Positions 1,849 to 2,892 of a stretch of DNA of 21,678 nucleotides are shown in pieces. Origin of the DNA: a virus (lineage: Duplodnaviria > Heunggongvirae > Uroviricota > Caudoviricetes); IMG/VR virus record IMGVR_UViG_2617271049_000016; one strand, given 5' to 3'. Below the pieces are notes generated by a model. It was not told where the DNA came from. It saw only the letters and a program-made list of their open reading frames with translations, and searched no databases. The position numbers were made by a program, and so were the translations under genes. How positions within the stretch are numbered: the stretch's first letter is position 1; each line of letters opens with the position of its first letter.

Positions 1849-2553
1849 TTACTGCGAAAGTTTGTTAATGGAAAGGAAGCCGCCAAAGTTGCCGACGTTA
1901 TTGCGAAACTTACAGCCACTCAGGCATTTGCTGCATTTATCCTTCGTGATATCGGACGTTGGCTGGTCATATTCATCCGCGACCGCCGGACCGTGATAAC
2001 CGCACTCATCGCCGCGATAGGTCCAGGTGCAGGTGTTGGCCAGCATGATACGTCCCGGAAAAACAGCGCCATCTGTTTCCGTCGGCGTGGACAGTACAAA
2101 GGAGGCACTCACCGCGCTCAGTTCGCTGCACTGCTCGATGCGCCAGCGGCTGATCACCTCCTGCTCCGGATCGGCGTCACTGTTTCCGTTGACGAAGTTC
2201 ACCGCATCCAGAAAACGGGCGTAAACCTTACGCCGGACCACCGTTCCGCCGACCAGACTCTGCAGATCTTCCGCCATCCCGGTGACCATACCGTACAGGT
2301 TAGAAACCGTCAGCGTGGGGCGCGTACTGGTGCCTTTGCCATTCAGTTCAAAACCACTCCCCTGAATGGGATACGGCTGATACTGTCGCCCCTGCCAGTT
2401 GACCGGCTCACCTTTTTCGTTCTGCTCATTACAGAAAAAATAACGTTCTCCACCGACCTCTGTCAGGTCGATTTCCCAGAGCACCACGCTGGCCGACTGC
2501 TCCGCACGGGTGCATTCATTCAGTGTTTCCTGCCGGATATCAAACCACGTCAA
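1849..2553 (-). CDS. Lambda gpL-like minor tail protein; N-terminal two codons replaced, TTG at start position, no ATG
   Basis: 234 codons; ...DIRQETLNECTRAEQSASVVLWEIDLTEVGGERYFFCNEQNEKGEP...CSKCLSGCKFRNNVGNFGGFLSINKLSQ is near-identical to lambda L as I recall it. In-frame upstream codons hit a stop with no ATG, and there is no obvious SD, so expression is doubtful. Confidence 0.8.
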   Translation of the reverse strand: MTWFDIRQETLNECTRAEQSASVVLWEIDLTEVGGERYFFCNEQNEKGEPVNWQGRQYQPYPIQGSGFELNGKGTSTRPTLTVSNLYGMVTGMAEDLQSLVGGTVVRRKVYARFLDAVNFVNGNSDADPEQEVISRWRIEQCSELSAVSASFVLSTPTETDGAVFPGRIMLANTCTWTYRGDECGYHGPAVADEYDQPTSDITKDKCSKCLSGCKFRNNVGNFGGFLSINKLSQ

Positions 2554-2658
2554 ATAATCAATTATGACGCAGGTATCGTATTAATTGATCTGCATCAACT
2601 TAACGTAAAAACAACTTCAGACAATACAAATCAGCGACACTGAATACGGGGCAACCTC

Positions 2659-2892
2659 ATGTCAACTAAGAACAGAACCCGCAGAACAACAACCCGCAAC
2701 ATCCGCTTTCCTAACCAAATGATTGAACAAATTAACATCGCTCTTGAGCAAAAAGGGTCCGGGAATTTCTCAGCCTGGGTCATTGAAGCCTGCCGCCGGA
2801 GACTGTGCTCAGAAAAAAGAGTTTCTTCTGAAGCAAACAAAGAAAAGAGTGACATTACTGAATTGCTCAGAAAACAGGTCAGACCAGATTGA
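2659..2892 (+). CDS. ynfO: YnfO-like small prophage protein (77 aa)
   Basis: Intact ORF MSTKNRTRRTTTRNIRF...; position relative to ydfO/gnsB matches Qin gene order as I recall it. Confidence 0.6.
   Translation: MSTKNRTRRTTTRNIRFPNQMIEQINIALEQKGSGNFSAWVIEACRRRLCSEKRVSSEANKEKSDITELLRKQVRPD

Follow-up and report, generated by a model that had tools for sequence, protein, structure and literature searches.

The boundary between the genes L and ynfO in the window (IMGVR_UViG_2617271049_000016; the term denotes the whole stretch of 21,678 nucleotides that was analysed) is very probably the healed scar of an intra-prophage deletion, produced by illegitimate recombination at a 3-bp microhomology in a Qin-like defective prophage of E. 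coli, and the lambda-type tail gene L left beside it is probably silent. Under this explanation, break-and-rejoin or replication slippage, acting without extended homology, would have linked two distant points of the prophage, joining a point 79 bp inside the phage right end (lambda 48423, upstream of ynfO) to codon 3 of L (lambda 13435) through the 3-bp overlap GAT/ATC, with the loss of cosQ-cosN-cosB, Nu1/nohA, terminase A, all head genes and the tail genes Z through M. On the established lambda biology of cos, terminase, head and tail functions, the element would from then on have been unable to be packaged or to build a capsid or tail tube. The features on which this account rests, together with neighbouring ones, are collected in Table 1.

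Table 1. Features at and around the junction, in positions of the window.
Feature	Position	Strand	Remarks
Side tail fibre gene, C-terminal part (stfQ-like, Collar domain, Pfam)	1..818	-	runs off the left edge of the window
IS110-family remnant	817..1846	-	abuts the L stop codon; 3' part deleted
Second deletion junction	817..818	.	2-bp microhomology TA (three-way alignment); IS110 transposase joined in frame to the C-terminal part of stf
IS110 5' non-coding end	1702-1830	-	end mapping
IS110 sub-terminal inverted repeat, L-proximal copy	1831-1843	-	end mapping
Lambda-type minor tail (tail-tip) gene L, codon 3 through stop	1847..2541	-	695-bp island; phage homology
Remnant ORF as called by annotation pipelines	1849..2553	-	TTG start and three junction-derived codons (T-W-F), then L codons 3-232
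Deletion junction	2539..2541	.	3-bp microhomology ATC (GAT on the phage sense strand) common to both parental sequences
Retained non-coding right end of lambdoid chromosome, now L-ynfO spacer	2542..2658	.	lambda 48304-48420
ynfO (YlcI/YnfO family, DUF3950), 77 aa	2659..2892	+	intact; divergent from L
ydfO (DUF1398)	2935..3360	+	intact; K-12 annotation implies a start ~15 bp inside the ORF
cspA-type thermoregulator leader (cspI)	4332-4718	-	Rfam gathering-level
cspA-type thermoregulator leader (cspB)	7228-7620	-	Rfam gathering-level
Sok antitoxin RNA of hokD	14355-14526	-	Rfam gathering-level
Third deletion junction, relative to WI1	17012-17013		TA overlap; removes the dicC-dicA-ydfABC-DicF region

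The position of the junction is given by homology that closes on it from both sides. By megablast against phage genomes, L-type homology (to phi458, ev207, 2H10, 434 and others) stops at 2541 and has its other end at 1847 or 1849, and by megablast against complete E. coli genomes, the right-side homology begins at 2539 and continues through ynfO in K-12-derived strains and many others, with identities over 2539-2800 of 100% to the K-12-derived MT102, Stbl4, XL1-Blue and others and 99.6% to MG1655. Three-way alignment with the M/L junction of the related prophage of WI1 and with the region upstream of ynfO returned the same limits, the left identity ending at 2541 and the right identity starting at 2539; window 2539 corresponds to lambda 48423, and window 2541 to lambda 13435, the G of L codon 3 (GAT). 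An earlier, sequence-only reading had placed a deletion or illegitimate-recombination endpoint at about 2545-2555. The event it proposed stands, whereas its position does not: aligning the site with the M-L junction of lambda and with the K-12 DNA that precedes ynfO fixes the breakpoint to the base, 5-10 bp further to the left.

At the junction itself, the microhomology amounts to the 3-bp ATC overlap and nothing longer; beyond it, the two parental sequences are unrelated on either side in the three-way alignments, and a repeat search around the junction returned only chance-level short matches. It is because the junction has only this 3-bp overlap, without extended homology, that we read it as an endpoint of illegitimate recombination. 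Deletions with small overlaps are the type of event described for illegitimate recombination in E. coli (PMC11372144, PMC3375238), a process that resembles microhomology-mediated end joining (PMC11372144). Aberrant excision of lambda, as scored in the Spi- assay, is alike in yielding junctions without extended homology, with few shared bases and with deletion of prophage DNA (PMC11372144, PMC3375238); unlike in that assay, the product alone is seen here, and any dependence on RecQ, SSB, RecBCD or ligase lies beyond inference from sequence. Since an overlap of at least 3 bp is expected, by computation, at ~5% of random junctions, the observed one is weak evidence for a microhomology-dependent route, suggestive rather than decisive. 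The observations themselves are the breakpoint, the genes that are gone, the lost start signals of L and the occurrence of the scar in many isolates; we infer the molecular route (microhomology-assisted illegitimate recombination), the number of events behind the final junction and the silence of L.

What the deletion removed can be read from a fuller relative. WI1 (NZ_LT838196, locus L004) carries at the same locus a Qin-like prophage that is 99.8% identical over 93% of the window, with L and ynfO in the same orientation, and between these two genes it holds, in the same order and orientation, nohA (Nu1), a partial terminase gene, W, the portal gene, head genes, FI/FII, Z, U, V, G, T, H and M. 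From between the same two sequences the window lacks exactly positions 10970-21620 of that locus, that is, 10,651 bp, in keeping with the earlier claim that the terminase, head and tail genes up to M are absent; in lambda coordinates, the deletion comprises 48424-48502 and 1-13437, or 13,516 bp (about 13.5 kb). Between ynfO and ydfW (window 2539-13580), the two prophages are 99.86% identical and show the gene set and gene order of Qin. Apart from the nohA-to-M interval, WI1 differs from the window in having K, I, J, lom, a full stf, the dicA/dicC immunity region and an ISEc22 insertion. WI1 and LST200A, a second strain that is informative for L, are relatives of the window and not its ancestors. 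Compared with lambda and 434, the window has an L of 98-99% nucleotide identity, and its positions 2539-2821 are 97.5% identical to lambda 48141-48423; in those phages, however, the two segments lie 13.5 kb apart across the joined cos, with the packaging, head and tail genes between them. Two smaller differences from WI1 were also seen. At 15470-15478, the empty site of ISEc22 (IS66-family), two alignments have 9 bp in common (TCAAAACTG), the pattern expected of a target-site duplication, and a difference of 101 bp falls inside an ISNCY transposase remnant at 13578-13580.

The chromosomal surroundings are those of a Qin-type cryptic lambdoid prophage (ydfJ-rspB locus). A carrier locus (L008) that is 100% identical to window 1-8553 continues leftward through tfa, pinQ, ynaE-like and ynaM-like genes to an MFS transporter gene, the left boundary of Qin (the ydfJ/ydfK/pinQ side), and the window ends in an integrase gene, which in WI1 abuts rspB. 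Given these left and right flanks, the element lies at the Qin locus, and the order and orientation of L fit an internal deletion, which argues for that reading over a fusion of two distant prophages. Qin of K-12 occupies the same locus and has the same backbone (ynfO, ydfO, gnsB, cspI, rzpQ, rrrQ, essD, cspB/F, quuQ, rem, hokD and relBE), with 99-100% identity from ynfO rightwards, and it, too, is a lambdoid prophage from which an internal deletion took the head and tail module. The endpoints are nevertheless unrelated: in K-12, cos and nohA (Nu1) are still present and the sequence past nohA is linked to a 5'-truncated stf, whereas in the window cos and nohA are deleted and L is kept. It is well known that accessory genes are retained in Qin (PMC3105296, PMC6832061). 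The cspI and cspB leaders and the Sok RNA are ordinary Qin features; cspA thermoregulators and Sok were the only Rfam matches in the window, and the junction itself gave none.

Other strains have lost parts of the same module through different and independent events: besides the K-12 deletion, LZHX12 has codon ~52 of nohA joined to a site within L, in FCI56 the end of an M allele runs into codon ~14 of ynfO, and Res13 strains retain fragments of terminase, W, portal and J. FCI56 was considered as a possible sharer of the L-side endpoint and was rejected, as it carries a different M allele, which before L diverges from lambda at the same base and is fused to ynfO at codon ~14.

The genes that survive in the relatives bear on whether the window lost its module at a single stroke. 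WI1 is itself already eroded, with a partial terminase, and partial terminase, portal and capsid genes occur in WI1 and other relatives; L is a mosaic, its 3' 250 bp identical to LST200A and its 5' part lambda/434-like; and in one carrier (L009) the lysis cassette next to the scar is another one (bor, Rz, R, S, porin, Q, rusA), which indicates later exchange of neighbouring modules. These observations would suit a history of successive events, in which an earlier partial deletion of the head genes, of the sort present in WI1, K-12 or Res13, and a recombination with another lambdoid prophage that brought in an IS110-tagged L preceded a last small deletion, but no intermediate with part of the deletion and one of the two endpoints was found, and we hold such a history to be possible though rather unlikely. 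It is a refinement of the explanation by intra-prophage deletion and not a contradiction of it, the final junction being the same either way.

To the right of the junction, the retained end of the lambdoid chromosome (the L-ynfO spacer) is 100% identical to K-12 Qin, and ynfO starts 118 bp from the junction and 106 bp from the TTG of the L remnant, close to the distance of about 100 bp given before. Leftward of the endpoint, K-12 has 79 bp up to the cosN nick (…CGTAAC / AGGTCGCCGCCC, window orientation), followed by cosB and nohA (Nu1). Because the right endpoint sits so near to the nick, cos must be counted among the deleted sequences, and cosQ, cosN and cosB have all gone along with Nu1 through M; a search of the window that allowed up to three mismatches found no cosN-like sequence. 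The inclusion of cosN in the deleted interval, with one endpoint just 79 bp from the nick, raises the question of whether the prophage's own terminase cut cos in the chromosome, the ends then being resected asymmetrically (79 bp against 13.4 kb) and joined by the 3-bp microhomology. We consider this improbable on several grounds: (i) neither endpoint is at cosN, the nick lying 79 bp from the right-end breakpoint and 13.4 kb from the one in L; (ii) any 13-kb deletion of the module that ends near ynfO covers cos by position alone; and (iii) cos is no recurrent origin of such deletions, because the independent deletions of K-12 and LZHX12 leave it out and a Res13 strain keeps the sequence immediately cos-ward of the window's endpoint. 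If the proposal were true, self-inflicted cleavage at cos would be among the ways in which a lambdoid prophage sheds its packaging and head module and turns into a fixed cryptic element.

On the other side of the scar, the coding sequence of L is well preserved, and the signals for its translation are gone. Over exactly 1847-2541, L is 98.3-99.1% identical in nucleotides to phi458, ev207, 2H10, 434 and others (megablast, phage genomes); its protein is 97-99% identical to common E. coli L alleles and matches the full Pfam profile Phage_tail_L (PF05100; 1-206 of 206, E = 1.1e-100). Like L, YnfO and YdfO belong to their families without ambiguity. The remnant ORF has 234 codons, and its translation, L-T-W-F-DIRQETLNECTRAEQ... 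(the part after T-W-F begins DIRQETLNEC), matches lambda L (MQDIRQETLNEC...) from codon 3 as far as the stop, just as the sequence-only reading had it. That reading was also right that an ATG is lacking, that a TTG (2553-2551) occupies the start position and that a stop lies in frame upstream, namely TAA at 2583-2581, with no in-frame ATG, GTG or TTG between the two. The absence of a Shine-Dalgarno (SD) sequence, likewise claimed, is borne out by the pairing of the 25 nt before the TTG with the 16S anti-SD, calculated at +0.3 kcal/mol against -7.2 kcal/mol at the native L start of lambda and WI1. L of lambda and 434, unlike the remnant, begins with an ATG behind an SD, and the end of M overlaps it; in the window, M is gone upstream, and K, I and J are replaced downstream. 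In the L-ynfO interval, a consensus scan for promoters and terminators detected nothing sigma-70-like or otherwise promoter-like on the minus strand.

Lacking ATG, Shine-Dalgarno sequence and translational coupling to M, the remnant is probably untranslated or barely translated and has so far not acquired disabling mutations. Read-through onto L from a Q-dependent late promoter is possible, because the Q antiterminator gene, upstream of L on the same strand, is intact. Whether L might have been kept as a domesticated gene, expressed from the TTG or by late read-through, deserves consideration in view of its ORF, intact over all 232 native codons, and of the Q and lysis genes upstream on the same strand; the TTG start without an SD and the loss of the partners M, K, I and J make this very improbable. 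The carriers of the scar, moreover, are nearly identical (four that are collinear with the window differ from it by <=0.06% over 8.5 kb, and L009 by 0.24%, i.e., 99.76% identity, over the shared 3.4 kb), so that the intact frame is expected from recency alone and says nothing on selection. Two further ORFs call for comment. A 271-codon ORF on the plus strand (1828-2643, TTG start) runs antisense to L across the junction and in all likelihood reflects the codon bias of L and is no gene, and P0014, another 234-aa member of the L cluster, has a normal MQ start, is a variant with a TW duplication and does not represent this junction.

The remnant is isolated on its left as well: an IS110-family element inserted at the stop codon, together with a second deletion, separates it from K, I and J. 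Phage homology ends at 1847, just past the L stop codon, and 817-1846 is 100% identical to a full IS110-family copy located between L and K in E. coli LST200A; in that and several other strains, the element is inserted in the 5-bp L-K spacer, and a 13-bp inverted repeat (ATGAACGCATCCC / GGGATGCGTTCAT) lies sub-terminally at its two ends. Codons 1 to ~295 of the 339-aa transposase are retained in the window, with DEDD_Tnp_IS110 and Transposase_20 domains. A match of ~40 bp between 1809-1846 and the start of K in WI1 was discarded, being the region of the IS110 sub-terminal inverted repeat and not K. Along with K, I and J, the window lacks lom and the 5' part of stf. The stf fragment, 99.4% identical to the stf pseudogene of strain Res13-Lact-ER02-39, forms with the transposase an ORF that is unbroken from 1701 to the left edge of the window (minus strand), and in L009 the fusion is called as a 693-aa product. 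As to the element at large, a full copy (L005, about 5594-7030) is ~92% identical to ISEc66; at least 8 complete E. coli genomes in which K, I and J are still present have the identical insertion (99.8-100%); and it is the transposase-distal end, with the longer non-coding end, that has been deleted in the window. The transposase-stf fusion, for which the chance of being in frame is 1 in 3, adjoins tfaQ and pinQ.

With an IS110-family remnant only 695 bp off, directly after L, an IS-mediated adjacent deletion or an IS110-type recombinase might be thought to have made the L-ynfO junction; this is highly unlikely, as both sides of 2539-2541 are phage DNA and neither is IS sequence, the outer end of the IS is at 1846 with an intact L in between, no IS-end repeat is found near 2540, and the transposase gene is itself truncated.

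The scar is real and inherited, and it belongs to a rare lineage. The 234-aa product specific to this junction (MTWFDIRQ...) is encoded unchanged on 21 E. coli contigs at NCBI, which come from independent assemblies and reach 4.94 Mb, and each of the 21 entries bears the name 'phage minor tail protein L [Escherichia coli]' (e.g., CDU36206.1). Five of the loci were read and proved collinear with the window across the junction over 3.4-8.5 kb, HG977190.1 (GCA_000731355.1) being 100% identical to window 1-8553 and the others 99.76-99.97%. No contiguous match to the junction (megablast with 2350-2800) occurred in any of 5,426 RefSeq complete E. coli genomes, among which the best matches came in two pieces with other junctions; a junction 46-mer was absent from GTDB representative genomes, which include one genome per species and are hence uninformative for a rare lineage, and a junction 29-mer from JGI metagenome contigs, uninformative for the same rarity. 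Although absence from these three collections is what a chimeric contig or an assembly or sequencing artefact would lead one to expect, the exact junction-specific protein on 21 independent contigs, with five loci collinear, leaves that reading virtually no probability. In L009 (GCA_963455775.1, 1-5175), the block stf-IS110-L-scar-ynfO-ydfO is 99.76% identical to the window and differs from it beyond window 3379; just after ydfO come lambda/DLP12-like ninE, ybcO, rusA, ylcG, Q, porin, S, R, Rz and bor, and the cold-shock/lysis region of Qin is absent. Because another lysis cassette borders the scar there, lambdoid prophages have exchanged either the block that bears the scar or the one next to it.

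Decay has also reached the other part of the window. The third junction (Table 1), defined relative to WI1, removes part of a replication-region ORF, a ydaT-like gene, dicC, dicA, ydfA, ydfB, ydfC and DicF, and Rfam finds no DicF in the window. The 62-aa ORF of dicB is retained (17096-17284) and now lies within a 124-aa ORF (16910-17284); dicB is left without its known promoter and repressor region. The overlaps of 2-3 bp at all three junctions suggest that the same generic decay process may have produced them.

To conclude, the junction is an ordinary scar of prophage decay, of a well-known kind, and its scientific importance is small. It carries a caution for annotation, since pipelines call the remnant a normal 'phage minor tail protein L' from its TTG start and tools that score prophage completeness could count it as a tail gene, though cos, the terminase and the head and tail-tube genes are gone. 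The junction-specific 234-aa 'L' protein, on the other hand, present on those E. coli contigs and in none of the RefSeq complete genomes searched, is a clean lineage marker. For the Qin-like prophages of E. coli, the site records, to the base, one more independent way in which the virion module is lost.
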